Below, in pieces: positions 30,480-44,886 of a DNA stretch of 64,000 nucleotides (its first letter is position 1; every line of letters begins with the position of its first letter). The stretch covers positions 52,187-116,186 of the forward strand of contig CANKAM010000005.1 of assembly GCA_947479755.1 (NCBI GenBank). The letters are read 5' to 3'. The DNA comes from Bacteroidota bacterium. Lineage in GTDB: Bacteria; Bacteroidota; Bacteroidia; SXHM01. The notes below the pieces were generated by a model. The model had not been told where the DNA came from and did no database searches. It worked only from the letters and a program-made list of their open reading frames with translations. Position numbers and translations under genes: made by a program.

Positions 30480-31244
30480 TTATTTATTGAAAGAGCGCAA
30501 ACGTATTTCGGTCAGCACTTTTTTAGTGTATTGGGGAAAATCGGCAGTCATCATCCAATTGTAGTAACTGGGCTCGGCACTTAAAATGGCTGTAACAACT
30601 TTGCCTTTGTGCTTCCCGAAATTAATTACCTCTTCGTTTTTTTCGTTAAAAATAATGTGTCCTGCAAAGTCAACATTGCGGTTACGGATAGAGAAGTCAT
30701 GCAGGAATTTCACATCGTTTTGCAACTCAGGATAACGCTCTAACTGCGCTTCTAAAACTTCATATGTTGCCAGTGTATCAGCTTCTGCGCTGTGTGCATT
30801 TTCTAAATCTTTCTGGCAATAAAACTTGTAAGCAGCAGAAAGAGTGCGTTGTTCCATTTTATGAAAGATGTTCTGTACATCAACAATTCTGCGGCTTTTC
30901 ACATCAAAGTCAACACCCACTCTTAAAAATTCTTCCACCAGCAGTGGCACATCAAAGTTCAGGCAGTTGTAACCGGCAAGATCGCAATCTGCAAGATAGT
31001 TTTTCAGTTCATGGGCAAAATCCGCAAACAAAGGTTTGTCCTTTACATCAGCATCGTAAATTCCATGCACGACTGAGGCATCGGCAGGAATAGGAATTCC
31101 GGGATTTATTCTTCGCGTAATACTTTCTTTATCTCCACCGGGAAGAACCTTAACAACTGAAATTTCTACTATTTTGTCGGTGGCAACTTTTACACCTGTA
31201 GTTTCAAGGTCAAAAACGGCTAAAGCCTTATTGAGTTTAATCAT
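30480..31244 (-). CDS. DEDDh-type 3'-5' exonuclease domain protein (DnaQ-like)
   Basis: VFDLETTG (Exo I), and NFDVPLL and HSAEADT (Exo III) motifs. The start overlaps the stop of 31241..33169 by 4 nt. Confidence 0.75.
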   Translation of the reverse strand: MIKLNKALAVFDLETTGVKVATDKIVEISVVKVLPGGDKESITRRINPGIPIPADASVVHGIYDADVKDKPLFADFAHELKNYLADCDLAGYNCLNFDVPLLVEEFLRVGVDFDVKSRRIVDVQNIFHKMEQRTLSAAYKFYCQKDLENAHSAEADTLATYEVLEAQLERYPELQNDVKFLHDFSIRNRNVDFAGHIIFNEKNEEVINFGKHKGKVVTAILSAEPSYYNWMMTADFPQYTKKVLTEIRLRSFNK

Positions 31245-33169
31245 GGTTTGGTTGGGGTCGTCTGCACAAGTCCTTTCTGCATCAGGGTAATGTCTTTTAG
31301 TATGGTAGGCAGATAACTGCTCTTGTCGAAGATATTCAGGTCTTCTGATATTTTGTCGTAGCCATCAACTTCCACTTCCAGTTTATAGTTTCCGGGCTTA
31401 AGAATAATCACATACGTTCCTTTTTTGCCTGGCTTGTATGAGCCAATAATATCTCCTGATGCAGGGTCAAGCACATTAATAGATACCTCTACTCCGGGTT
31501 TATTAAGAATAGATTTTGTTTCGGCAGCAACAGGTTTATAATTTGGAATTGGAAGTTTTTTAGAGCGGGTTTCCATCCATTCAAAACCAGATGCATCTTT
31601 CGGAAAAGTTTCGGGTGTATATTTTTTTACTTCTCCATTCATCTTCCCGATGATAGAAATTTCCATCACCTGCCCTTCGGGAATTTCCATTTTCTTATCT
31701 TCTTTAAATGTCCAACCCGGTTTATCTTTCGGATACCATTCATCTGTAAAATAAACATCGCGAGTGCCATCAGTATAAATATGAAAATTGACAACTTTCT
31801 TCTCAGGCTTTTCCATCACCTGAATTTTTCCGGTAACGGCAGATTCCTGCTCTTCCACTTCATTGTAAATAACACGGTAAATATCCAGTTCGCCTATACC
31901 GCCCGGACGAAGAGCGGAAACGTAACCATAACGTGAGTTATCAGAACGAGAAAAAGTAAAATTATCCTGTGTGTTATTAATAGGGTAACCCAGGTTTTGC
32001 GGTCGCGACCAACGTTTCATTTTAGCATCCCATTCGCTGCGGAACACATCGTAACCGCCCATGCTGTTATGTCCCTTAGAAGCAAAATACAACAGCTTGC
32101 CATCTCCTGAAATGTAGGGGAACTCCTCGTCATACTGCGTATTGATGGTTGGTCCAAGGTTTACGGGTTCGCACCATGTTCCGTTTGGTAATTTATGTGC
32201 AACATAAATATCTGTTCCACCAAAACCGGGGTTCTCTAAAGGTGTACGAGAGAAATAAATGGTATTTCCGTCAAGCGTTAAACTTGCAGCTGTTTCGGTT
32301 TCAACCGTATTAATATACTCTCCAAGGGAAACCGATTTCTGAAATGAAATTTTTGAACCGCGTGTTTTGCTTTCGCTCATCCAGATATCGTCATAGCCTT
32401 CAATGTTATCAATACCAATCAGAATGTATCCACCATCTGCCGAAAGACCTACTACCTCTTCCACCCAATCAGTATTAATGGTTGGTCCCAGGTTTTTTGA
32501 TTTTTGAAATTCTCCGTCTTTTTCAAATGAAACAAAAACGTCAGCGCATTTTGCTCCATCAAAATCAAGATTGCCGCCTGTTACTTCTTTTCTTTTGGTT
32601 GAAAAAACTACAAATGATTCATCTGAAGGTACAAATGGATTGTAATCAGATTCAAGAGAGTTTACTTTTTTGCCAAGATTTTCAAATGTTACATTTACAG
32701 GCTTTTTCATCAGTTCCTTTGCGTTGGTGCATATTTCAATCTGACGAATGGCTTCTACAACTTTACCTCCCTGAGAAATGGATGTTTTGTATTTAGTAAA
32801 CGCCTCAATAGCCTGATCAAGACTATCATTAACCAAATAGGCACGACCTAAATCGTAATAAATATCATCATCAGTTTTGCCAAGTGCAATTGCCTTTTTC
32901 AGGTACTGAATGGCATAAGATTTATCAATATTGGTATTCAGATAAGATATTCCTATACGATAGTTGTAAAGCACATTATCCTGCTCTTTGGTAATAAGAG
33001 CAAGGTATTCTCCTAATGCAGCTCTGTAGTTTCCAAATTCAAAATTATCTCTGGCAACTTTTTTTTCCACTTCACCAACTTTGGGAACAACTAATTGGGC
33101 AATAGAAAATTTAGAAAGAAAAAAGAAAGAAAAAAAAAGAAGAGCGAATAATAAACTTCTTTTACTCAT
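31241..33169 (-). CDS. Secreted TPR - PD40 (TolB-like beta-propeller) - carboxypeptidase-regulatory-like beta-sandwich protein. PorE-like but lacking the OmpA_C domain.
   Basis: Signal peptide and N-terminal TPR helices. Repeated PD40 blades (F.S.R....GG.D.(Y/F)...., LGP.INT....E). C-terminal segment GTYVIILKPGNYKLEVEVDGY. No OmpA motif. Confidence 0.7.
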   Translation of the reverse strand: MSKRSLLFALLFFSFFFLSKFSIAQLVVPKVGEVEKKVARDNFEFGNYRAALGEYLALITKEQDNVLYNYRIGISYLNTNIDKSYAIQYLKKAIALGKTDDDIYYDLGRAYLVNDSLDQAIEAFTKYKTSISQGGKVVEAIRQIEICTNAKELMKKPVNVTFENLGKKVNSLESDYNPFVPSDESFVVFSTKRKEVTGGNLDFDGAKCADVFVSFEKDGEFQKSKNLGPTINTDWVEEVVGLSADGGYILIGIDNIEGYDDIWMSESKTRGSKISFQKSVSLGEYINTVETETAASLTLDGNTIYFSRTPLENPGFGGTDIYVAHKLPNGTWCEPVNLGPTINTQYDEEFPYISGDGKLLYFASKGHNSMGGYDVFRSEWDAKMKRWSRPQNLGYPINNTQDNFTFSRSDNSRYGYVSALRPGGIGELDIYRVIYNEVEEQESAVTGKIQVMEKPEKKVVNFHIYTDGTRDVYFTDEWYPKDKPGWTFKEDKKMEIPEGQVMEISIIGKMNGEVKKYTPETFPKDASGFEWMETRSKKLPIPNYKPVAAETKSILNKPGVEVSINVLDPASGDIIGSYKPGKKGTYVIILKPGNYKLEVEVDGYDKISEDLNIFDKSSYLPTILKDITLMQKGLVQTTPTKP

Positions 33170-33215: not shown

Positions 33216-36200
33216 TTAAGGAGTTTTATATTTTTTAACTTCCATTTCAAGCAAAGACTCGGTAATAGCTATGTCTGTATTTTTAAAGCAGAAGATACCA
33301 CCCCAGTTCCATGTCTTTTTGTCGTAAACTGTAACCGTTCCCTTGTCGTTAATGATATATCTTTTCAGCTTAAAATCTTTACCATCAATATTCTCTTCAG
33401 TAAGACCCTCCGGGTAAATCAAAGCGATATCAGAAAGAAATTGTACTCTTCTGTCTTTTTCACTAAGTTGATTATTTTTAGCCCTTTCCTGTGCTTCTTC
33501 AAAACGTTTCTTCCTCTCACTTTCACTTAAACGCTTGGCGTCTTCCTGCGCTATTTTGTATTGCTCAGCACGTAATTTTTCTTCTTCCAGACGTTTTACT
33601 TCAGCAGCAGCTTTTGCTTTTGCTTCAGCTTCATCACGCACACGTTTTTCTTCTGCTAAACGTACAGCCTCTTCACGTGCTTTCTTTTCAGCTTCTGCTC
33701 TTGCTTTAGCATCTGTTTCATCTTTTATGCGCTTTGCTTCGGCTAAGCGAGCAGCTTCTTCACGTGCTTTTTGCTCTGCCTCGGCTTTAGATTTTGCAAC
33801 AGCCGCTTCCTGTACACGTTTTTCTTCTTCTTTTCGCGCAAACTCTGCTTCTGCCTTAGCCTCTGCTTCTGCCTGCAAGCGCTTAGCTTCTGCCACTCGA
33901 GCAGCTTCTTCAGCAGCTTTTTTGTCAGCTTCGGCTTTTGCTTTTGAATCAGCTTCTTCTTTCAAACGCTTAGCTTCTGCCACTCGAGCAGCTTCTTCAG
34001 CAGCTTTTTTGTCAGCTTCTGCTTTAGCTTTGGCATCAGCCTCTTCCTTCAATCGTTTTGCTTCGGCTAAACGAGCTGCTTCCTCATCCTTACGTTTCTG
34101 CTCTGCTTCTGCTTTTGCTTTAGCATCTGCAATTTCGCTTATGCGCTTTTCCTCTGCCAGTCGTGCAAGTTCATCAGCTTTTGCTTTGACTGCAGCTTCC
34201 TCTGCCAATCGTTTTTCTTCTGCTGCTTTTTGTTTTGCTTCTTCAGCAATTTTCTTGATATCTGCTGCTAAACGGGCTTCTTCCCCTGCTTTAGCTTTTG
34301 CCGCTTCCTCTTTCTGACGTTTTTCTTCTGTTAAGCGGACAACTTCATCAGCTTTAGCTTTAGCTGCGGCTTCATCAGCTAATCGTTTTTCTTCTGCTGC
34401 TTTTTGTTTTGCTTCTTCACCGGCTTTCTTGGTCTCTGCTGCAAGACGTGCTTCTTCCTCTGCTTTAGCTTTTGCAGCTTCCTCTTTCTGACGTTTTTCT
34501 TCTGTTAAGCGAGTTGCTTCATCAGCTTTAGCTTTTGCTGCGGCTTCATCTGCCAATCGTTTTTCTTCTGCTGCTTTTTGTTTTGCTTCTTCACCGGCCT
34601 TCTTGGTCTCTGCTGCAAGACGTGCTTCTTCCTCTGCTTTAGCTTTTGTAGTTTCCTCTTTTTGGCGTTTTTCTTCTGCTAAACCGTTAGCTTCTTCTTT
34701 AGCCTTTCTCTCTTCCTCAATCTTAGCTTCAGCTTTTGCTTTTGCATCAGCTTCTTCTTTTATGCGGTTTTTCTCAGCCAATTTTGCTTCTTCTTCTTTT
34801 CTTTTTTCTTCGGCTTCAGCCTTTGCTTTTGCATCAGCTACTTCTTTCAAACGCTTTTCTTCTGCAGCCTTAGCTAATTCTTCTTTTACACGCTTCTCCT
34901 GTTCTGCTTTTGCTTGAGCTTCTTCTTTTTGCTTTCCGGCATCTGCAAATAGTACTTGCGCAGCATCTGATTTTGAGGCAAGAATTTCTTTTGATTTTTG
35001 CTCAATTTCTACCCTGCGCTTCTCCTGCTCAGCAACTTCAGTTGCTTTCTTCTGTTCAAATGATTTTTGCAGTTGTTGAACTTCAACTAAATCTGCAGCC
35101 GATTGAAGTGATCTGAAATCAATACCTATAGCAGGCTGACCACTTTCTTCCGCTTTTTTTACATCTCGTTCATATTGCTCATACATGGCAACCGCTTTTT
35201 CTTCACGATAAGGAGCATTAGCTGGTAACGCATTTTTTAATGCGTTGATTGTTGTCTCTCGATTTCCAGCACCTGTAGTAATTGCGTCCTGAATTTTCTT
35301 TCCCTGTTCAGACTTTGTCTGTTGCAGTTTTTCTTCACGAACTTTTTCAACTCCAACTTCTGCTTTTTTAGATTCAGCCTGACGCTCTTTGCGTTTCTCT
35401 TCCATGGCCATGTAAAGCGCAACTTCGCTATTTTTCATAGCATCTTCTTTCTTTTTGTGCTCAGCATCAACCGCTGTTAATTCTGCTTGTTTACCTGCAT
35501 TGAAAATTGATTTGTAATCAACTGCAGCATAATTTTTACCTTGCTCCTGCATGATTTTTCTATCTGCTTCGTATTTCTCATACATTGCAGTAGCTTTATG
35601 TTCAGCAAAAGGATCATCTTTACCGAATGTTTGTTTAAAGGCTTCTATCATTTTCACTTTATCTCCTGCAGCAGATTTAACAGCTTCTTCAATTTTAGCA
35701 ACAGCTGCAGCTTCTTCTTTCGCGCTTTTCTCATTTACCTTTTGCATGTACTCATCTACTCTTGCTTTCTGCTCCTGAGATTGTTTTTGCTCTGCTTCAT
35801 CCTGAGCTTTAATTTCTGCAAAATTAGCAGCAGCAAACAATGCAGAATAATCTACATTTGAAAAGGTTGATCCTGATAGTTTTTGTTTTTCATAAGCCTC
35901 ATATAGCGCAGTAGCTTTTGCTTCTTTATAAGGGTCTTCTTTCGCGTAAATAGTTTCAAGTTGCTTAATTGTTTCTTCTTTATTGCCTGCACCTGTTTTA
36001 ATAGCCTGCTCAATTTTTTGTTTTTGCTCGGTTTCTGCTTTTTCGCGCAGTACTTGTTGTACACGTTCTGCCTCCTCTAGTTTTCCTTTCATCTCAACAG
36101 CAGCAGCTTCTTTTTGCTTTTCAAGTGCCTGTTTCTCAGTTTTTGCTATTTCTTCTTTTGCAATACGTATTTGTTCCTGAACTTTTTTAACTTCTTCTTC

Positions 36201-37040
36201 TTTTGCTTTTACTATTTGTTGTTCAGTCTTTTTTCCTTCCTGAAATAATATGCCATAATCAACTGTTCCGTTTGTTCCCTTTTGTTTTTCATACGCCTGA
36301 TATATTGCTTCTGCCTTTTTTTGGGCAAGAGTATCGGTATCTAGAAATGTTTTCTTTAAAGCATTTATTGTTGTTTGTTTGTCTCCATTTCCTGATTTTA
36401 TTGCATCTTCAACTTTTTCTTGTCCTAATGTTTTTTCATCTGCTATAAGAGTTTTTGCCTGCATTTCGAGCAACGCCTTGTCTTCTGCAGCCTTTCTCTG
36501 AAACTCTAATTTTTCAAGCCTTTCGCGCTCTAACTTTGCTTCCTCTTCCAGTTCTTCTTTTGAGTAATCTAACTGATAGTCAAATTCTTTTTTCCTCGCG
36601 TAATAGAAAACATTTGCAACAGGGTTAATATAACCGAGACCATCACGGTCAGGTACAAGGTCAACTATAAAACCAAAAGGTTCAGGCTGATTTGTAAGTG
36701 CATATACCTCTGTATCAAAGGTTACTTTTTTTGTGGTATAGCCTCCTACAGCAACTTCAATCATATACTTTCCTTCAAGGTCTAATTTGAAAGAAAATTT
36801 TCCATCACCTTTTGTTAATTGTTTTTCAATTTCAACCCATTTGCCGGTTTTATCAATATCCTGATAAAGAATAACAATAACGTTCTTTAGTTTATCCTGA
36901 AGTTCCTGCGCAGAGCCATTTATAACTAGTTTCCCGGGAATACTGCCGGCAGGCGGCTTCTCCTGCTCAAGCAAAACCTGTGCAGAAACAGAAAGCGATA
37001 ATTGAGAAAGAAGGAATAAAGAAAGTAGTATTTTTTTCAT
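33216..37040 (-). CDS. Giant secreted protein (1274 aa): an N-terminal carboxypeptidase-regulatory-like beta-sandwich, then four roughly 60-aa helical modules, then a Lys/Ala/Glu-rich coiled coil of more than 800 aa (TolA domain II-like) and a small C-terminal domain
   Basis: Signal peptide MKKILLSLFLLSQLSLSVSAQ. Beta-sandwich motif GKYMIEVAVGGYTTKKVTF. Long runs of EEKRLKEEADAKAKAEA. Contains internal in-frame DNA tandem repeats. Confidence 0.7.
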   Translation of the reverse strand: MKKILLSLFLLSQLSLSVSAQVLLEQEKPPAGSIPGKLVINGSAQELQDKLKNVIVILYQDIDKTGKWVEIEKQLTKGDGKFSFKLDLEGKYMIEVAVGGYTTKKVTFDTEVYALTNQPEPFGFIVDLVPDRDGLGYINPVANVFYYARKKEFDYQLDYSKEELEEEAKLERERLEKLEFQRKAAEDKALLEMQAKTLIADEKTLGQEKVEDAIKSGNGDKQTTINALKKTFLDTDTLAQKKAEAIYQAYEKQKGTNGTVDYGILFQEGKKTEQQIVKAKEEEVKKVQEQIRIAKEEIAKTEKQALEKQKEAAAVEMKGKLEEAERVQQVLREKAETEQKQKIEQAIKTGAGNKEETIKQLETIYAKEDPYKEAKATALYEAYEKQKLSGSTFSNVDYSALFAAANFAEIKAQDEAEQKQSQEQKARVDEYMQKVNEKSAKEEAAAVAKIEEAVKSAAGDKVKMIEAFKQTFGKDDPFAEHKATAMYEKYEADRKIMQEQGKNYAAVDYKSIFNAGKQAELTAVDAEHKKKEDAMKNSEVALYMAMEEKRKERQAESKKAEVGVEKVREEKLQQTKSEQGKKIQDAITTGAGNRETTINALKNALPANAPYREEKAVAMYEQYERDVKKAEESGQPAIGIDFRSLQSAADLVEVQQLQKSFEQKKATEVAEQEKRRVEIEQKSKEILASKSDAAQVLFADAGKQKEEAQAKAEQEKRVKEELAKAAEEKRLKEVADAKAKAEAEEKRKEEEAKLAEKNRIKEEADAKAKAEAKIEEERKAKEEANGLAEEKRQKEETTKAKAEEEARLAAETKKAGEEAKQKAAEEKRLADEAAAKAKADEATRLTEEKRQKEEAAKAKAEEEARLAAETKKAGEEAKQKAAEEKRLADEAAAKAKADEVVRLTEEKRQKEEAAKAKAGEEARLAADIKKIAEEAKQKAAEEKRLAEEAAVKAKADELARLAEEKRISEIADAKAKAEAEQKRKDEEAARLAEAKRLKEEADAKAKAEADKKAAEEAARVAEAKRLKEEADSKAKAEADKKAAEEAARVAEAKRLQAEAEAKAEAEFARKEEEKRVQEAAVAKSKAEAEQKAREEAARLAEAKRIKDETDAKARAEAEKKAREEAVRLAEEKRVRDEAEAKAKAAAEVKRLEEEKLRAEQYKIAQEDAKRLSESERKKRFEEAQERAKNNQLSEKDRRVQFLSDIALIYPEGLTEENIDGKDFKLKRYIINDKGTVTVYDKKTWNWGGIFCFKNTDIAITESLLEMEVKKYKTP
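33883..34056. repeat. Two near-identical in-frame 87-bp tandem repeats (29-aa unit AEAKRLKEEADAKAKAEADKKAAEEAARV) inside CDS 33216..37040
   Basis: TAGCTTCTGCCACTCGAGCAGCTTCTTCAGCAGCTTTTTTGTCAGCTTC occurs at 33883 and again at 33970. Confidence 0.7.
34310..34830. repeat. Three in-frame tandem copies of a 174-bp (58-aa) unit inside CDS 33216..37040; the first two are near-identical
   Basis: CTTTCTGACGTTTTTCTTCTGTTAAGCG... restarts at 34310 and 34484, with a diverged third copy near 34656. The protein unit is AEEKRLADEAAAKAKADEATRLTEEKRQKEEAAKAKAEEEARLAAETKKAGEEAKQKA. Confidence 0.8.
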
Positions 37041-37107: not shown

Positions 37108-39345
37108 TTATTTCCCTGCTGTGGTAATAATTTTTTTACCGTCAACACTTAAAATAGTAAGTTCAATTCTTCTGTTCATCTGGCGACCTTCCAGATCATC
37201 ATCACCATTAGGTTTTAGATTATCAGCAATAGGCTTAGCTTCCCCATAACCTTTGGTAACAACTCTTTTGGCTTTTATACCTCGTTCATCCAACCATTTT
37301 TGAACGGATTTTGCCCTTCTTCTTGATAAATCAATATTGTATTCGTCAGTTCCTCTGGAGTCAGTATGACCTGCAACCTCAACAATCATTTCAGGATTTG
37401 AGGTCATAAAGTAATATAGTTTTGAAAGTTCAATAACTGACTCATCACGTATATTATCTTTGTCAAAATCGAAATAAATTCTTTCCAAAATAATTTTATC
37501 GCCCGGTTTAAATTTTTTGGTATTTGAAATATCTACGTCCATTAGTGATGGATCATAGCCAAGTTTTTTAATCACTTCAAGTTTTGCAAGTTCCTTTTCA
37601 AGTTCTACAATTTCATCTGCAAGTGTGAGATTCTGTTGTTCAACTTTAGGTATCTCCATAGTATATGTTTGATCCATTCTATATTTTGCATTTGGATCCG
37701 GACGCATGGTGTAATCTTGTATAATCTCTGAAATGAAAGAACTTTGACCTAACACTTCTACAACACCCATAGTATCAAAGTAAAGTGGGTTTTGAATATA
37801 AACACAATACTCGCCCGGCTGAAGTATTTGAACATAATTACTATTCCGGGAATTTGGTTTGTAGTAACCTATCAGTTCATTGGTTTCCATATTTGTAACT
37901 GACATTATAAATTCAGGCAGTTTCATGTCGGGATTTTTCTTCAACGAGTCTGCTATGTTTGTTATTGATCCTCTGACTAAACTCCTCTCCGGATCTACTT
38001 CGTTAAATGTTACTTTATAAATATCCTTTTCTCCAAATCCTTCCGGTCTGAATTGAGCAACATATCCATACCTTCCTGTAGTTGACATTGAAATATTATA
38101 ATCTTCATCTACCGTATTTATTGGGTAACCAAGATTTCTAGGTGTTGACCAGGTTTGGGTAAGTTCGTCCCAAACGGAAGTAAAAATATCAAAACCTCCC
38201 ATACTTACATGGCCTTCTGAAGCAAAATAGAGTGTTTTCCCATCTGCTGCGAGGTGCGGGAACGTTTCGTTGTATTTGGTATTAATAATCGGACCAAGGC
38301 TTACAGGATTTCCCCAGTTACCATTTGGCATTCGATACGACATAAAAATATCAGTGCCTCCATTAGTCGTCTTATCTTCACGTGAGAAGAATAGTTTACT
38401 AGCATCTGTAGATAGTCCTGCAGATGTTTCAATACCCTCTGAATTAATATTTGTTCCGAAAGTTTTATATTCTTCATAATACCTGCCTTTTCTTTGTGAG
38501 ACATAAACATCATCGTATCCGTCAAAGTTGTCAATAAAAACAAGCATTTCTTCACCATCAGCAGAAACTCCAACTACTTCCTCATACCACTCAGTATTTA
38601 CTGCTGAACCTATATTTCTTGCTTCTCCAAATTTCCCTCTTCGTTCATTTGCCCTGTAAATATCTGATGTTTTATATCCGTCATAGTCAATTTGTATACC
38701 TAAGCAATCTGGTCTTTTTGAAGTAAAAACAATGAATTCTTCATTTTCCGGAATAAACGGGTTATACTCAGGATAAGGTGTGTTGATGCGGCTACCAAGA
38801 TTTTCAAAAGTAACATCTAACGGATATTTAACAAGTTCCTTAGCATTAAAACACATTTCAATAACGCGGTCTCCGGCAATAATATTATCATTTGCGGAGC
38901 GCAGAATGTCCTTATATTTATTCAAAGTAATAATAGCCTCATCAAAACGGCCTACAAACTGATATGCACGTCCTAATTGATAAAGTGCTTCTTTATCAAA
39001 TTTTGGTTGCTGTGTAACAAATTCCAAATAGCTGATGGCTTTAGACTTATCAATATATGTTTCAAGATAGCAACAACCCACGTAAAAATTATAATCTACA
39101 TTCTGAGGATCATTTGCAAGAAGTAATAAGAATTCATCCAAAGCTGCTCTGAAATTTCCATTCCAATAATGTTCTAATCCCTTCTGTTTAGTTGGCTTAT
39201 ATATTTTATCTTCTTTTTCTTTTTTAATTTTATCCTCAACTTCCTGAGTAGTAGTAATGTCTCTTGACTGCGAAAACACAGCAAGAGGCAATGCTAATAG
39301 CGTAAAAACAAAAAATAAGAATGAAAAAGTATAGGTCTTTAACAT
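37108..39345 (-). CDS. PorE-like envelope protein: signal peptide - TPR - PD40 beta-propeller - carboxypeptidase-regulatory-like domain - short coiled coil - OmpA_C peptidoglycan-binding domain
   Basis: Four-domain order matches P. gingivalis PorE (PG1058). The OmpA_C motif is ...VEVAGHTDSRGTDEYNIDLSRRRAKSV..NRRIEL. Confidence 0.75.
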   Translation of the reverse strand: MLKTYTFSFLFFVFTLLALPLAVFSQSRDITTTQEVEDKIKKEKEDKIYKPTKQKGLEHYWNGNFRAALDEFLLLLANDPQNVDYNFYVGCCYLETYIDKSKAISYLEFVTQQPKFDKEALYQLGRAYQFVGRFDEAIITLNKYKDILRSANDNIIAGDRVIEMCFNAKELVKYPLDVTFENLGSRINTPYPEYNPFIPENEEFIVFTSKRPDCLGIQIDYDGYKTSDIYRANERRGKFGEARNIGSAVNTEWYEEVVGVSADGEEMLVFIDNFDGYDDVYVSQRKGRYYEEYKTFGTNINSEGIETSAGLSTDASKLFFSREDKTTNGGTDIFMSYRMPNGNWGNPVSLGPIINTKYNETFPHLAADGKTLYFASEGHVSMGGFDIFTSVWDELTQTWSTPRNLGYPINTVDEDYNISMSTTGRYGYVAQFRPEGFGEKDIYKVTFNEVDPERSLVRGSITNIADSLKKNPDMKLPEFIMSVTNMETNELIGYYKPNSRNSNYVQILQPGEYCVYIQNPLYFDTMGVVEVLGQSSFISEIIQDYTMRPDPNAKYRMDQTYTMEIPKVEQQNLTLADEIVELEKELAKLEVIKKLGYDPSLMDVDISNTKKFKPGDKIILERIYFDFDKDNIRDESVIELSKLYYFMTSNPEMIVEVAGHTDSRGTDEYNIDLSRRRAKSVQKWLDERGIKAKRVVTKGYGEAKPIADNLKPNGDDDLEGRQMNRRIELTILSVDGKKIITTAGK

Positions 39346-39456: not shown

Positions 39457-42400
39457 TTAAGATTTAGGTTTTAAATCCTTTGGAACATCAAAATTTTCAA
39501 TCTTAACATTCTTTGCATCAAGGTTCAAAATCCTGATTTCAATTCTTCTGTTTAACTGTCTTCCTTCAGGATTATCTGATCCATCAGGATTCTCATTTAT
39601 AGCAATTGGTTGACCTTCTCCCATTCCAACAGCTTTAAAGCGATTAGCATCAATACCTTTTCTTGTAAGATACCTTACCACTGCATTTGCTCTGTCTTTT
39701 GAAAGCTCTACATTATAATCATCATTCCCATGAGAATCGGTATGACCACTAACTTCAACTTTTATGTCCTTATTATCTGACATATAGTTATATAATTTCT
39801 GTAGTTCTTCCTCCGACTCTTTCCTGATTATTGATAAATTATAATCAAATAAAATATTTTTAAGTACAACAGACCCACCCTTTTTAAATGATTCGAAATC
39901 AGTTTTCATAACTGCTGCCTGATATTTTTGCTGCTTCTGAATTTCTTCAAATTTAGCTAACAACTCTTCGTACTTTTTATTTTGGTCCGTAACCTGCTGT
40001 GTCAACTGATTAATTTTATTACCCGATTCAGCTATTTGCTTTTTAAGTTGTTCGTTTTCTAAAATCAGTGCTTGATTCATTTTCTTCAGTTCCTCAATAC
40101 TCTTTGAATTGTCAAGTGCATCTGCTTGATTTTTTGCTTCCTCCTCAGCTTTAGCTTTGGCGACTACCTCTTCTGCTTTCCGTTTTTCCTCAGCAATCTT
40201 CTGTTGCGCTTTAACAAATTCTTCTTGTTTCTCTTTTTTAGCGGTTTCTTCTAATTTAAGTTTCTCGTCAGCAAGTTTCTCGTCAGCAATCCTTTGCTCT
40301 TCCGCTTTCCTTTTCACTTCTTCTTCTTTTTGAGCAGCAAGACGAATTTCTTCCATTTTAGCTTTATTAGCTGCCTCAAGAGACGCTTTATCTTCAGCAT
40401 CTTTTCTCTCAGTTTCCTCCTTAGCCTGTAACTTCCTTTTTTCTTCAACTATCTGTTGGTCTTCTTGTTTCTTCTTCTCTTCATAAGACTCCTTAGCGAA
40501 ACCTGATGCCAGTTCTTCTTTCTCTTTAGTTATTTTTTGAGTTTGTAATTTCTTAAGTTCCTCTAAGCGCTTGACAATTTCATTTTTTCTAGCAACTAAT
40601 GAATCTTCAAATGCTTTTTTCGTTTGGTCGGCAATTAGCTTTTGCTGCTCTTCCTGTTTTTTCTTTTCTGCTGCAAACTTTGCTGCTTCATCAGCCTTAC
40701 GTTTCTCTTCTGCTAAACGTGCGGCTTCCTCGGCAAGTTTCTTTTCCTGTGCTGCTTTATTAGCTGCAAGTTCTTCCGCTTTTTTCTTTTCCTCAGCTGC
40801 TATACGAAGTGATTCCTCAGCTTTGGCTTTTGCTGCAACTTCTTCTGCAAGCTTTTTCTCTTCAACTGATTTTGCTGCGGCAACTTCTTCTGCCTTTTTC
40901 TTTTCTTCTACTGCCAAACGGGCTGTTTCTTCTGCTTTAGCCTTTGCTGCTAATTCCTCAGACAGTTTTTTCTCATCAGCAGATTTAGCTTTAGCAAGTC
41001 CTTCTTCCTTTTTCTTTTCTTCTGCTGCTAAACGGGCTATTTCCTCAACTTTGGTTTTTGCTGCGGCTTCCTCAGCCAATTTCTTCTCTTCTGCTGATTT
41101 AGTTGATGCAAGTTCTTCTGCTTTTTTCTTCTCAGCTGCAAGGCGTTTTTCTTCTTCCGCTTTCTGCTTCTCTTCTGCCAGCCTACCTCTCAGAACAGCT
41201 TCTTCAGAAAGTCGTTTTTCTTCAGCCGCTTTTGCTGCTTGTTCTGTTTTGCGTTTCTCTTCTGCTAATAAAGTTTCCTGCTCTTTAGCAGATTTCTCCA
41301 TCGCAACAAGTTGCTCTTCCAATGCCTTCAGCTCTGATAGTTTTTCGTTTTCAGGTTCTTTATTATCTGCTATCTGATTCACTTCTTCAACTTTCTTTTC
41401 TTCTTGTTGCGCAACTTGTTTTCCGCAAATTACAGGATCAAGCATTATTGCTTTTGTTATCTCTGCATAGCTTGAATTTTCAGGAACTACTATTTTATCG
41501 ATTTTAGACTGATAACCATCACACTCATAGGTAACATTATACGTTGCTCCAGGTTGAAGAATAAAAATATAGCTTCCGGTAGATTTATTAGGTTTATAAA
41601 TTCCTGTAACAGCATTGGTTCTGGCATCAGCTACAATAATATTTGCAAGAATTTCCGGACTATTTTCAAGAATAACAACACCTTTCATAACGGTAAGGCT
41701 TTCTTTCTTTTTTTCGGTAAGCTCAATCAGATAAATATCTTTTTCACCCATCCCACCTTCCATGCGTGAAGAGTAATAAGCATAGTGTCCATCCGGAGTA
41801 GTAACAAAAAACACATCGTCTTCAGGAGAATTGATCGGATAACCAATATTAACAGGTGTTGACCAAACTCCATCGATATTTTCAGAAGTGAATATATCAA
41901 AACCGCCCATACTATTGTGACCCTGAGAACTGAAGATAAGTGTTTTCCCATCAGCTGCAAAAAATGGTGCTTCTTCATCAAAGGCGGTATTTATAGTTGC
42001 TCCGAGATTTTCCGCTTTACCCCAAGTGCCATCAGGAAGAAGTGAGATTTTGTAAATATCTCTTCCGCCTAAACTTCCGCTTCTGTTACTGACTATGAAT
42101 AAATTTTGTCCGTCTGCCGAAACTGTTGCATGGGTTTCCCAAGAACCGGTGTTTATTTCACCGCCTAACTTTTCAGGTTTTGACCATTCTGCACCATTTA
42201 ATTTACTCATGTAGATATTACCATCTCCATTGTCATCTTTGTAAATAAACAATTGCTGTCCGTCAGGAGAAAGGCCTATTGTGGCTTCATGTCCTTCCGT
42301 ATTAATATTAACCCCTATACTTCGTGGTGTTGTCCATTTACCTTTTTCTTTTTTTGCAATGTATATGTCCTCATAGTACTTTCCGTCAAGAAAAAGTTTC

Positions 42401-43050
42401 CCGCCAGTCCCTTCTCTGCGTGAAGTAAAGATGAGTGTATTGCCATCTCCTGAAATTACAGGGCTATATTCTTCATATTTTGAATTGATAACCGAACCCA
42501 ATGATTGAACCTTAATATTTACAGGTTCTTCTATAAGTAATTTTGCATTTTCAGAATATTCAATCTGATGTTTTACTTCAGAATACGTATTTACATCTTC
42601 TAAATCAACAAATGACCGATAATTATAATAATTTGAAATTGCATCATCAAAACGGTAAGAAAAATGGTAGGCTTTTGCAAGATTATAATATGTTATACCT
42701 GGTGCTGTTTTTTCCTTGTAGTCGCTTTCTTTATACATAGGCGATGGGGGTGAAAGCATTATTGCCTGCTCAAGATAATAGATTGCTTTTTTTCTGTCAG
42801 GGCTAGCACCAAGATAGGATGTACCCAACATGTATGCAATATTTGCGTTTGAAGAATCGTAAGCATATAATTCCTTTGAAATAGGCAGGGCTTTGTAATA
42901 GTCACCGTCAAACAAATAACCATCAACCAAAGCGAATTTCTTTTTAAAATCCGCTTCGTTGGTAACTTGTGCGCTTACTGTGCTGAAAAGAAATAAACCT
43001 AAAACTACTAAAAGTAAACCTGCTCGCATAAACTGTCCGTAAAAATACAA
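39457..43050 (-). CDS. PorE-like protein with a roughly 450-aa Lys/Ala/Glu coiled-coil insertion: TPR - PD40 - carboxypeptidase-regulatory-like domain - long coiled coil - OmpA_C
   Basis: PD40 blades and beta-sandwich motif SYIFILQPGATYNVTYECDGY. About 40-aa repeats AEEKKKAEE.AAAKS.EEKKLAEEAAAKAKAEE. C-terminal OmpA_C motif VEVSGHTDSHGNDDYNVELSKDRANAV..NRRIEIRIL. The true start may be the internal Met MRAGLLL. Confidence 0.75.
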   Translation of the reverse strand: MYFYGQFMRAGLLLVVLGLFLFSTVSAQVTNEADFKKKFALVDGYLFDGDYYKALPISKELYAYDSSNANIAYMLGTSYLGASPDRKKAIYYLEQAIMLSPPSPMYKESDYKEKTAPGITYYNLAKAYHFSYRFDDAISNYYNYRSFVDLEDVNTYSEVKHQIEYSENAKLLIEEPVNIKVQSLGSVINSKYEEYSPVISGDGNTLIFTSRREGTGGKLFLDGKYYEDIYIAKKEKGKWTTPRSIGVNINTEGHEATIGLSPDGQQLFIYKDDNGDGNIYMSKLNGAEWSKPEKLGGEINTGSWETHATVSADGQNLFIVSNRSGSLGGRDIYKISLLPDGTWGKAENLGATINTAFDEEAPFFAADGKTLIFSSQGHNSMGGFDIFTSENIDGVWSTPVNIGYPINSPEDDVFFVTTPDGHYAYYSSRMEGGMGEKDIYLIELTEKKKESLTVMKGVVILENSPEILANIIVADARTNAVTGIYKPNKSTGSYIFILQPGATYNVTYECDGYQSKIDKIVVPENSSYAEITKAIMLDPVICGKQVAQQEEKKVEEVNQIADNKEPENEKLSELKALEEQLVAMEKSAKEQETLLAEEKRKTEQAAKAAEEKRLSEEAVLRGRLAEEKQKAEEEKRLAAEKKKAEELASTKSAEEKKLAEEAAAKTKVEEIARLAAEEKKKEEGLAKAKSADEKKLSEELAAKAKAEETARLAVEEKKKAEEVAAAKSVEEKKLAEEVAAKAKAEESLRIAAEEKKKAEELAANKAAQEKKLAEEAARLAEEKRKADEAAKFAAEKKKQEEQQKLIADQTKKAFEDSLVARKNEIVKRLEELKKLQTQKITKEKEELASGFAKESYEEKKKQEDQQIVEEKRKLQAKEETERKDAEDKASLEAANKAKMEEIRLAAQKEEEVKRKAEEQRIADEKLADEKLKLEETAKKEKQEEFVKAQQKIAEEKRKAEEVVAKAKAEEEAKNQADALDNSKSIEELKKMNQALILENEQLKKQIAESGNKINQLTQQVTDQNKKYEELLAKFEEIQKQQKYQAAVMKTDFESFKKGGSVVLKNILFDYNLSIIRKESEEELQKLYNYMSDNKDIKVEVSGHTDSHGNDDYNVELSKDRANAVVRYLTRKGIDANRFKAVGMGEGQPIAINENPDGSDNPEGRQLNRRIEIRILNLDAKNVKIENFDVPKDLKPKS

Positions 43051-43179: not shown

Positions 43180-44799
43180 TTACTTCTTTTTAACCTTCAT
43201 AGGTTCAAGATTTACCGCCTTATTTATTTCAAAATAAGAGGTTCCGACAGGAACTGTCAAATTCTCGGAATGGAATAAGTAACCATTTGCTTCGTAAGCA
43301 ATATTATAAGTAATTCCTGGCTTTAGAATTAGGGTAAAACTACCATTATCAGCGCGGTTTCTGGAAGTTCCGTAGAGTTCACCTGATTTGTTATCTGTTA
43401 CGTTAATAGTAACTTTGGGAATAGTACCATTTTCATCTTTTTCAATCTTTCCTTTGTAAAGAGTAAGCGGCTCCTGAATTTCAAGTTCAAGGTTAATCAG
43501 GTAAATATCTTTTTCACCAAAACCACTGTCCTTTGATGAGGAATAATAAGCTCTTTTTCCATCGGGTGAAGCAACAAAGAACACCTCATCATCTGCTGTA
43601 TTGGTTGGATAACCAATGTTTCTGGGCTGTGTCCATTTCCCGTCATCCTGAAAGACAGAGAAGAAAATATCAAAACCACCAATACTGGTATGTCCTTTTG
43701 AACTAAAGAAAAGTGTTTTGCCGTCAGGATGCATGAAAGGTGCATCTTCATCGTACTCTGTATTTACGACATCGCCAAGGCTTTGTGCTAATCCCCAGTC
43801 ACCATTAGGTAATTTTTTACAGGAATAAATATCCAATCCACCTTTTCCGCCATTGCGATTACTGGTAAAAAACAAGAGTTGTCCGTCCGGTGAAACAGAA
43901 GCATGCGTTTCCCATGCTTTACTGTTAATGTCAGACCCAAGCAATACAGCTTCGCTCCATACATCATTCTGCAATTTACTAACATAGATGTTTCCATCGC
44001 CCCAGTCATCGCGATAAATATAAAGTTGCTGCCCGTCTGCCGACAAACTGATACAAGCATCATGTCCGTCTGTATTAATTGCAGGGCCAATGTTACTTGG
44101 CGTAGACCATTCACCGTTTTCATTTTTTACTGAAACATAAATATCTTCAAAGTATTTATCATCATCGGCTTTAAGGTTTCCGGTTGTTCCCTGCCTGCGG
44201 GAAGTAAAAATCAGCATGGTTTCACTGGCATCAATAACAGCTGAATAATCATCAAAAGCTGAGTTAATTTTCTTTCCTAAGTTTTGGATTGAAAAACTTA
44301 CTGGTGTCTTAAAAATTTCTCGTGCATTATCGCACATCTTTATCTGGCGTTCAACATCTTTTGTAAGTTCAACTTCGTATTCAGGAATGTATTGTTTGAA
44401 TTGTTTGTATTCTTTGATAGCGCTATCAACCTTAAAGTCAATGTGATACGTTTTCGCCAATTTGTAAATTGCATCGGGAGGAGCTTGTGTTTCCTTATAA
44501 GTTCCTTCGGCAAATTCTTTTGAAATATTTTTAGATGCTGCCTTAAAATAAGGAATTCCAAGCGATTTACGATTAGTAGTACTGAAATAGCACATACCAA
44601 TTTTGTATTTCACATGAGCGTTTTCCGGATACAGTTTTTCCAGCTCAAGAAAATTTTTCAGGGCAAGATCAATCTTACCTGCTGCAAGGTGCTGTTCAGC
44701 AACAGGAAATATTTTTTTCAGATAATCTTCGCCTTGCGCAAACGAATGCAGCGTGCCGAATACAGAACATAAAATGCAAATGAGGAAAACTTTCTTCAT
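43180..44799 (-). CDS. Secreted TPR - PD40 beta-propeller - carboxypeptidase-regulatory-like protein (PorE-like without OmpA_C)
   Basis: Probable start MKKVFLICILCSVFGTLHSFAQ (ATG at 44797-44799). PD40 blades present. C-terminal SFTLILKPGITYNIAYEANGY with no OmpA motif. Confidence 0.7.
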   Translation of the reverse strand: MKKVFLICILCSVFGTLHSFAQGEDYLKKIFPVAEQHLAAGKIDLALKNFLELEKLYPENAHVKYKIGMCYFSTTNRKSLGIPYFKAASKNISKEFAEGTYKETQAPPDAIYKLAKTYHIDFKVDSAIKEYKQFKQYIPEYEVELTKDVERQIKMCDNAREIFKTPVSFSIQNLGKKINSAFDDYSAVIDASETMLIFTSRRQGTTGNLKADDDKYFEDIYVSVKNENGEWSTPSNIGPAINTDGHDACISLSADGQQLYIYRDDWGDGNIYVSKLQNDVWSEAVLLGSDINSKAWETHASVSPDGQLLFFTSNRNGGKGGLDIYSCKKLPNGDWGLAQSLGDVVNTEYDEDAPFMHPDGKTLFFSSKGHTSIGGFDIFFSVFQDDGKWTQPRNIGYPTNTADDEVFFVASPDGKRAYYSSSKDSGFGEKDIYLINLELEIQEPLTLYKGKIEKDENGTIPKVTINVTDNKSGELYGTSRNRADNGSFTLILKPGITYNIAYEANGYLFHSENLTVPVGTSYFEINKAVNLEPMKVKKK

Positions 44800-44886
44800 A
44801 GAAAAGTTTGTGTTTAGGTTTTTAATACCAATCAGACTTATCATTAGACAAGAACCAATAAATAAGCACTCAATACGCTTATTTTC

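Follow-up and report, generated by a model that had tools for sequence, protein, structure and literature searches.

Do in-frame DNA repeats in a very long bacterial gene yield a protein of adjustable length, and what kind of structure do they encode? This question is raised by a 64,000-nucleotide stretch from a Bacteroidota bacterium (assembly GCA_947479755.1, contig CANKAM010000005.1, positions 52,187 to 116,186 of the forward strand), referred to here as the window, in which one minus-strand coding sequence carries several tandem repeats. A preliminary description of this DNA saw in them near-perfect, very recent duplications within a coiled-coil protein whose length could be tuned. We find that the repeats are the youngest duplicates, or sub-arrays, of a single array of sixteen 29-residue units, and that gain and loss of whole 87-bp units distinguishes strains and species from one another and does not amount to phase variation. 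This core finding, in-frame repeats that alter the length of a helical linker over evolutionary time, is ordinary biology that is well documented here. For the protein itself, the reading that we favour, and regard as probable, is an envelope protein of uncultured Bacteroidia with a charged helical rod that changes by turnover of its units, where the rod is a single alpha-helix, the protein acts as a tether or spacer with PorE-like proteins, and rod length is loosely constrained.

The features that carry this result are as follows.

33216..37040, minus strand: the focal coding sequence, encoding a 1274-aa, probably exported protein, from the list of open reading frames (ORFs) and the translation.
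33513..34904, minus strand: array of 16 units of 29 residues (87 bp) forming a length-variable rod, aa 713-1176, defined by 29-residue rows and a unit identity matrix.
34146..34667, minus strand: three 174-bp (58-aa) higher-order units, C at 34494-34667, B at 34320-34493 and A at 34146-34319.
33861..34034, minus strand: two 87-bp units, u11 and u12, at 33948-34034 and 33861-33947, in frame and 88% identical.

Repeats were located with Tandem Repeats Finder (TRF), an offset-identity dot line and pairwise identities in codon register. TRF reported a 174-bp repeat at 34166-34682 (3.0 copies, 90% matches, score 817), as well as 87-bp repeats at 33865-34086 and elsewhere. As had been described, the repeats are in frame and encode whole modules of 29 and 58 aa, and the pair of 87-bp units is real. 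Three in-frame copies of the 174-bp unit are indeed present, and those previously placed at 34310 and 34484 match units B and C. The third had been placed at about 34656, which is not a repeat copy because the identity at an offset of 174 falls to background past ~34510; the true third copy is unit A, which lies on the opposite side, at 34146.

Between units B and C, identity is 92.5%, the 13 differences falling in six synonymous and four nonsynonymous codons, while A shares 84.5% identity with B and 81.6% with C. The three 174-bp copies thus differ at 13 to 32 positions, and their longest exact common run in register is 49 nt. Near-perfect identity holds for one 87-bp half of the B/C pair (u4/u6, 98%) but not for the other (u5/u7, 89%) or for the pair overall. 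Because unrelated units of the same array reach just 27-52% identity in frame, the focal repeats stand far above compositional background. A 'very recent' duplication is not supported either: the 7.5% divergence between B and C is about that from the nearest sister lineage, L004 (5-10% across the locus). The unit family of u11 and u12 has two to four copies in other lineages.

To see how unit number varies, we searched for orthologs using the non-repetitive N-terminal 702 aa of the focal protein as the query. This identified 11 orthologs of 1130-1220 aa, which are 72-99% identical over the N-terminal part. All comparison sequences are metagenome assemblies, and a scan of metagenome contigs added just three partial loci. 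When these are aligned, an N-terminal part (712-714 aa) and a C-terminal domain (75-79 aa) of almost constant length flank a rod of 342-487 aa. The window has the 487-aa rod and L001 one of 458 aa; the ten further orthologs have rods of 429, 429, 407, 400, 400, 393, 378, 371, 360 and 342 aa. Eight of the twelve lengths leave a remainder of 23 when divided by 29. Copy number does therefore differ among strains and species, the comparison that the preliminary description had called for, down to a strain pair that is one 29-aa unit apart.

Three loci from metagenome-assembled genomes (MAGs) with fully conserved synteny, L001, L002 and L003, have rods of 458, 429 and 371 aa. Together with the window, they can be written as 16 (window), 15 (L001), 14 (L002) and 12 (L003) units, each followed by 23 residues, and their units map onto those of the window in the following order.

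Window: 1 2 3 [4 5][6 7][8 9] 10 11 12 13 14 15 16
L001: 1 2 3 [4 5][6 9] 10 11 11 11 13 14 15 16
L002: 1 3 [4 5][6 9] 10 11 11 11 11 14 15 16
L003: 1 2 3 [4 9] 10 11 11 14 14 15 16

Different sub-arrays have been expanded in different lineages, and each lineage has young duplicates of its own, such as u8-u10 of L002 with 94-95% nucleotide identity. Between L001 and the window, orthologous rod units share 74-90% DNA identity. As this is comparable to the 84-85% of the whole locus, it is the number of units that varies in the rod, and not the sequence. The period itself reaches further than these orthologs: repeats of 29/58 residues are also found in the rods of the distant relatives P0014, P0021 and P0023, while P0027 has a period of 18/36. 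The N-terminal regions of these four proteins are 37-42% identical to that of the window protein. A helix completes nearly a whole number of turns in 29 residues, and likewise in 18.

One strain pair captures a single step of this process. Proteins P0002 (1220 aa) and P0167 (1249 aa), members of one 90% cluster, are identical in all 1220 aligned residues and differ by one 29-aa unit. Their loci share 99.9% DNA identity over 13 kb upstream and 99.7% downstream, and within the gene an identical prefix of 2969 nt and an identical suffix of 744 nt have an overlap of 50 nt where the 87-bp indel joins. Since the junction sits inside a 50-nt tract common to adjacent units, in-register unequal recombination or slippage accounts for the change. 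The 1249-aa allele was found on 10 contigs, among records in several naming styles and two NCBI MAGs. The 1220-aa allele was found on one k141 contig only (L007), and is probably real because the assembly k-mer exceeds the shared tract.

This was the only strain-level unit change seen. The exact 1274-aa protein of the window recurs on 12 contigs of 50-200 kb, and the five members of another cluster are all 1187 aa long. Unit variation thus looks slow. The earlier proposal of expansion and contraction stands in that whole modules come and go among the orthologs; fast, tunable change is not what the recurrence of the same alleles on 12 and 10 contigs shows. Nor does the gene resemble a contingency (phase-variable) locus, with units that are 82-93% identical (98% in one half) and identical alleles on that many contigs. 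In sample ERZ27263797, two related populations (L006 and L015) coexist, and the 1274-aa and 1249-aa alleles are both present. A 1180-aa allele (L004) comes from sample ERZ27280297, which has a similar accession number.

Repeats are a classic source of assembly errors, and with every compared sequence taken from a metagenome assembly, the extra repeat copy in the window might have been an artefact of assembly expansion or collapse. We rejected this explanation and give it a negligible chance: the copies are diverged, sharing at most 49 nt of exact sequence in register, and the protein was recovered on the same 12 contigs, one of them from a k141 assembly whose k-mer is longer than 49 nt.

We next consider the structure that the repeats encode. 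The rod (aa 661-1165) consists of 28% Ala, 24% Glu, 19% Lys and 8% Arg, with 1% Gly and no Pro, Trp, Cys, His or Met. In aa 713-1165, 10% of residues are large hydrophobics (LIVMFYW) and 55% are charged. Pairs of opposite charge are strongly enriched in the rod at spacing i,i+4 (0.32 per residue, z = 12.1) and also at i,i+3 (z = 5.8), and they are depleted at i,i+7 (z = -6.9). This pattern is the signature of charged single alpha-helices (PMC5347031, PMC4183817). Conversely, hydrophobic spectral power in the rod did not exceed that of shuffled sequences at periods of 3.5, 3.625 and 3.667 residues (z = 0.3, -0.3 and 0.1), and stayed near zero even when Ala was counted. In the same test, the control coiled coils Lpp, GCN4 and tropomyosin gave z = 11.8, 5.7 and 29.4 at period 3.5. 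Domain II of TolA has a similar but weaker signature.

The rod therefore lacks the hydrophobic seam with a period of about 3.5 or 3.63-3.67 that marks a classical coiled coil, and has the Glu/Lys/Arg-rich sequence, i,i+4 pairs and freedom from helix breakers that mark charged single alpha-helices. Judging from these statistics, the earlier term 'coiled coil' is probably wrong for the rod, which most likely folds into one stable alpha-helix, as ER/K helices and TolA domain II do. A similar case is INCENP, where a coiled coil had been predicted and a single alpha-helix was found (PMC4571873). Single alpha-helices have the role of a spacer and that of a constant-force spring (PMC4183817). Taking 0.15 nm per residue, a unit would measure 4.35 nm (~8.05 turns) and the 487-aa rod of the window 73 nm, with orthologs from 51 nm.

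These lengths would shrink to a half or a third if the rod were in fact a coiled coil of several strands, or an Ala-rich bundle of antiparallel helices. The 28% Ala with regularly spaced Leu, Val and Ile speaks for such a structure, bundles that are almost straight and not based on heptads could have a 29-residue period (29/8 = 3.625 residues per turn), and folding back would bring the rod down to the periplasm's width. Still, the absence of hydrophobic periodicity, in a test that readily detected the three control coiled coils, and a charge pattern of the single-helix type make this alternative unlikely, although we take it more seriously than any other.

The rod is one part of a protein with further domains.

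36978..37040, minus strand: signal peptide, aa 1-21, ending in VSA before Q; apparently a substrate of signal peptidase I and without a lipobox Cys, read from the sequence.
36570..36932, minus strand: N-terminal beta-sandwich, transthyretin- or CarboxypepD_reg-like, aa ~37-157, from AlphaFold2 (AF2), Foldseek and weak hidden Markov model (HMM) matches.
34905..36569, minus strand: helical region with four helix-loop-helix modules, aa 158-712, from a motif scan and an AF2 model of the first module.
33219..33443, minus strand: conserved C-terminal domain, aa 1200-1274, with a predicted alpha-beta5-alpha topology.

The order is thus signal peptide, sandwich, helical modules, the 29-residue array with its 23-aa tail, and a C-terminal domain of 75 aa. 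The AF2 model of the sandwich has predicted local distance difference test values of 70-92 per 10-residue block, and its Foldseek matches are transthyretin-like sandwiches. Weak HMM matches to CarboxypepD_reg and to the corresponding segment of the CHU_0125 model (E = 0.0016) agree with this. The helix-loop-helix modules begin at aa 210, 343, 450 and 583, are ~60 aa each and 107-133 aa apart, and share the motif AIKxGxGxK..TI..L...[DP]...K A.A.YE.YEK...VDY..LF. The region that contains them (aa 158-712) is nearly length-invariant across the orthologs. Searches of Pfam and NCBIfam, made with the whole focal protein and with its segments, gave no family for the protein as a whole or for its rod, modules and C-terminal domain.

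A profile built from the final 82 aa retrieved 213 cluster representatives with E-values below 1e-3, which define a broader C-terminal domain family with the motif YPxGxTEE...NWGGVFYFKN..ITE..F..ET. The domain is at the extreme C-terminus in all but three of 149 hits. Most of the longer family members scanned have CarboxypepD_reg near the N-terminus and TPR repeats or a long helical region in between. The predicted alpha-beta5-alpha fold had no convincing match in the PDB. The focal C-terminal domain also had no NCBIfam or Pfam match up to E = 10 to Por_Secre_tail and related sorting domains of the type IX secretion system (T9SS). Its alpha-beta5-alpha model is unlike the beta-sandwich of T9SS C-terminal domains, and the protein was not classed as type IX cargo. 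Given its strictly C-terminal position, the domain might still have a sorting role of another kind. The focal protein belongs to an uncharacterised family and is probably exported and cleaved by signal peptidase I.

The focal gene is one of five same-strand genes separated by gaps of 46-129 nt. Its four neighbours were assigned from Pfam and NCBIfam.

31241..33169, minus strand: PorE-like paralog without OmpA_C, 642 aa, with TPR, PD40 and a CarboxypepD_reg-like segment.
37108..39345, minus strand: PorE/CHU_0125-like paralog, 745 aa, with TPR, PD40 and OmpA_C.
39457..43050, minus strand: PorE/CHU_0125-like paralog, here called gene 2, with TPR, a PD40 propeller, a beta-sandwich, a 497-aa charged helical linker (39931-41421) and OmpA_C; its likely start is the Met at 43029.
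43180..44844, minus strand: PorE-like paralog without OmpA_C, 554 aa.

PorE has been proposed to be a fused CpoB-TolB-Ig-Pal tether between outer membrane and peptidoglycan in Bacteroidetes, where the same study detected no tol-pal loci (PMC12204202), and deletion of CHU_0125 impairs outer-membrane integrity (PMC5891637). Because the four neighbours score 194-287 bits against the CHU_0125/PorE family models, whose cutoff is 620, they count as paralogs, not equivalogs. Each of the five cluster proteins, the focal one included, has a signal peptide that ends in A/S-Q, without a lipobox Cys. Such ends fit the 'Q-rule' of Bacteroidetes. The missing lipobox is at odds with the description of PorE as a lipoprotein.

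Synteny of the cluster is conserved in the three MAGs L001, L002 and L003, and the 745-aa paralog is 745-749 aa long in four lineages. The whole cluster, with the exonuclease and hydrolase genes downstream, also surrounds a relative from a distant Bacteroidota lineage, P0018 (L019, 1-19510), the N-terminal region of which is 35% identical to that of the window protein. There, the order is a PD40/TPR protein, a long PD40-OmpA protein, a beta-propeller protein, the focal homolog, a 642-aa PD40 protein placed like the 642-aa paralog of the window, an RNase T-like exonuclease and an FAA hydrolase. In this locus, a 1060-aa WD40 beta-propeller protein replaces the 745-aa PorE-like gene.

Gene 2 had previously been noted for older, more diverged repeats of about 40 aa, and it does contain repeats of ~38 aa (114 bp at 40766-41130, 3.2 copies, 76% matches). 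Its linker measures 460-558 aa in five lineages, with a repeat period of 38, 37, 58 or 95 aa depending on the lineage. A unit of this linker (aa 621-678; aa 603-660 in L002) is homologous to the focal 58-aa unit at 34320-34493, with an in-frame nucleotide identity of 63-75% compared to 49-51 +/- 1.5% for codon-shuffled sequence. This suggests that rod modules of the two genes have a common origin or were exchanged ectopically. The lengths of focal rod and gene 2 linker do not co-vary across the five lineages (r ~0.2, five pairs).

The genomic neighbourhood also bears on whether the protein could be a surface fibril or adhesin, with phages, grazers or antigen recognition driving changes in the number and sequence of its repeats, as they do for the M and alpha-C proteins of Gram-positive cocci. 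The signal peptide, the very long rod and a conserved C-terminal module resembling a sorting or anchoring signal would suit such a role, as would the coexistence of populations with different rod lengths in sample ERZ27263797. We consider it improbable, as the rod is not hypervariable, its units having diverged about as much as the locus between the window and L001, and as the conserved neighbours are PorE-like proteins of a periplasmic type with a peptidoglycan-binding domain.

Could the rod instead be a rapidly tunable, adaptive ruler, whose repeat number changes often and sets an inter-membrane or surface-layer distance? Several observations are in line with this idea. Lengths differ between lineages mostly in exact quanta of 29 residues, one unit was gained or lost between strains that are ~99.8% identical, and distant relatives have kept the 29/58-residue period. 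With ~8 turns per unit, the end domains would stay in rotational register whenever a whole unit is added or removed. There is also a precedent in Lpp, the length of which sets the width of the periplasm (PMC5736177, PMC8824477).

Other observations speak against the ruler. The repeats are imperfect, at 82-93% identity and with no in-register exact run beyond 49 nt, and identical alleles turn up in 12, 10 and 5 independent records. A typical periplasm is ~25-30 nm wide, and a straight rod of 51-73 nm would be two to three times that. Four of the twelve rod lengths are out of phase with 29 residues, and co-variation with the gene 2 spacer is lacking. The ruler that the preliminary description had envisaged is therefore doubtful, although the persistent 29-residue period keeps a model of quantised length alive.

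Under the favoured reading, that of a loosely constrained tether or spacer, the rod would join the transthyretin-like N-terminal domain and the four helical modules to the C-terminal alpha/beta domain, and the focal protein would be a long, semi-flexible tether or spacer acting with PorE-like proteins in the cell envelope. Neighbouring 87-bp units recombine unequally in register, or slip in replication, and whole units are thereby gained or lost. If rod length (51-73 nm if fully helical) is loosely constrained, it follows that unit turnover would be tolerated, not finely tuned.

Several points weigh against this reading. The assignment of a single helix comes from sequence statistics only, and Ala-rich helices can bundle. 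The strain polymorphism of a single unit rests on one metagenome contig, L007. Clustering with genes for PorE-like proteins supports a link to them but does not prove it, and short, TPR-containing members of the C-terminal domain family occur in other contexts. Finally, the 29-residue period in distant relatives hints at selection on the period, which a loosely constrained length leaves unexplained.

A bolder version would make the focal protein and the PorE-like protein with rod and OmpA_C an undescribed long-range envelope tether in Bacteroidia, a group for which PMC12204202 found no tol-pal loci. Single alpha-helices acting as constant-force springs would then run between PorE-like modules associated with the outer membrane and the wall, and the two genes would exchange rod modules. 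Length would change in 29-residue steps (8 turns, 4.35 nm) that keep the end domains in register, and the C-terminal domain family (213 clusters) would provide docking. We put this forward as a long shot.

Comparison with known systems places the favoured tether or spacer among helical envelope linkers, with differences in each case. TolA domain II is a long Ala/Lys/Glu-rich, mostly helical envelope segment, a description that also applies to the focal rod, and spans 110 to 335 aa between species (PMC12204202), so that the focal rods are 1.0-1.5 times the longest domain II reported. Similarity to Tol-Pal is also seen in the TolB-like, CpoB-like and Pal-like folds of the neighbours. One member of the C-terminal domain family, P0033, matches the tolA_full model through its central region (79 bits, cutoff 59). 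Conversely, where TolA has a membrane anchor the focal protein has an apparently cleavable signal peptide, its C-terminal domain is not of the TolA/TonB type, and neither tolQ/tolR nor ExbB/D was found among the genes called within ~10 kb of the orthologous loci.

With the ER/K single alpha-helices of myosin VI and X, INCENP and the KER of CAF-1, the rod shares a Glu/Lys/Arg-rich sequence, i,i+4 charges and the lack of a hydrophobic seam (PMC4183817, PMC5347031, PMC4571873), as well as a place as spacer between two functional domains. It differs in being bacterial, exported and 28% Ala, in its length of 342-487 aa compared to usually 30-200, in a monomeric state that is putative, and in being built from a 29-residue tandem repeat at the DNA level. 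Lpp is likewise a helical envelope spacer, and engineered changes of its length alter envelope geometry (PMC5736177, PMC8824477). Lpp, however, is a 58-aa trimeric coiled coil with heptads that carries a lipid and is attached covalently to peptidoglycan. The focal rod is ~8 times longer, lacks both a heptad signal and a lipobox, and is not known to be linked to peptidoglycan.

The relation to PorE and CHU_0125 is one of neighbourhood in a conserved cluster, of a weak match between the focal N-terminal domain and their sandwich segment, and of the helical repeat unit that the focal protein has in common with gene 2. The focal protein itself has no TPR, propeller or OmpA_C, an architecture present in its neighbours only.

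M protein and alpha-C/Rib of Gram-positive cocci are dimeric coiled coils or Ig-like repeats that are anchored to the wall and subject to immune selection; their repeats are often nearly identical and vary frequently. Like them, the focal gene has in-frame tandem DNA repeats that form whole modules, with copy number changing through homologous recombination; unlike in these proteins, its repeats are diverged and vary slowly. Thermotoga Omp-alpha and the OmpM/SlpA stalks, rod-shaped spacers between outer membrane and wall, are built as heptad coiled coils and carry an SLH domain together with a membrane anchor or barrel. They too are long helical rods that link envelope layers, and gene 2 similarly combines a rod with a following peptidoglycan-binding domain, but the focal system has no heptads, SLH domain, anchor or barrel.

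How the outer membrane is tethered to the wall in this phylum is poorly understood, with PorE-like proteins as the proposed substitute for Tol-Pal. If our reading is true, the orthologs would form a natural series of envelope spacers in defined steps of 4.35 nm, and the rod would be an exported bacterial single alpha-helix far longer than known examples. The protein would also stand for an unannotated family with a new C-terminal domain, and the cluster would provide a case of repeat modules common to two of its genes.

Two minor observations were also made. A scan for sigma-70 promoters and terminators, which is unsuited to Bacteroidota promoters, yielded sites no more often than in shuffled sequence. 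On the plus strand, ORFs of 260 and 268 aa run antisense inside the repeat regions of the focal gene (33535-34317) and gene 2 (40571-41377). We rejected both as genes; the GAA/GCN/AAA codon bias probably produces them as by-products on the antisense strand.

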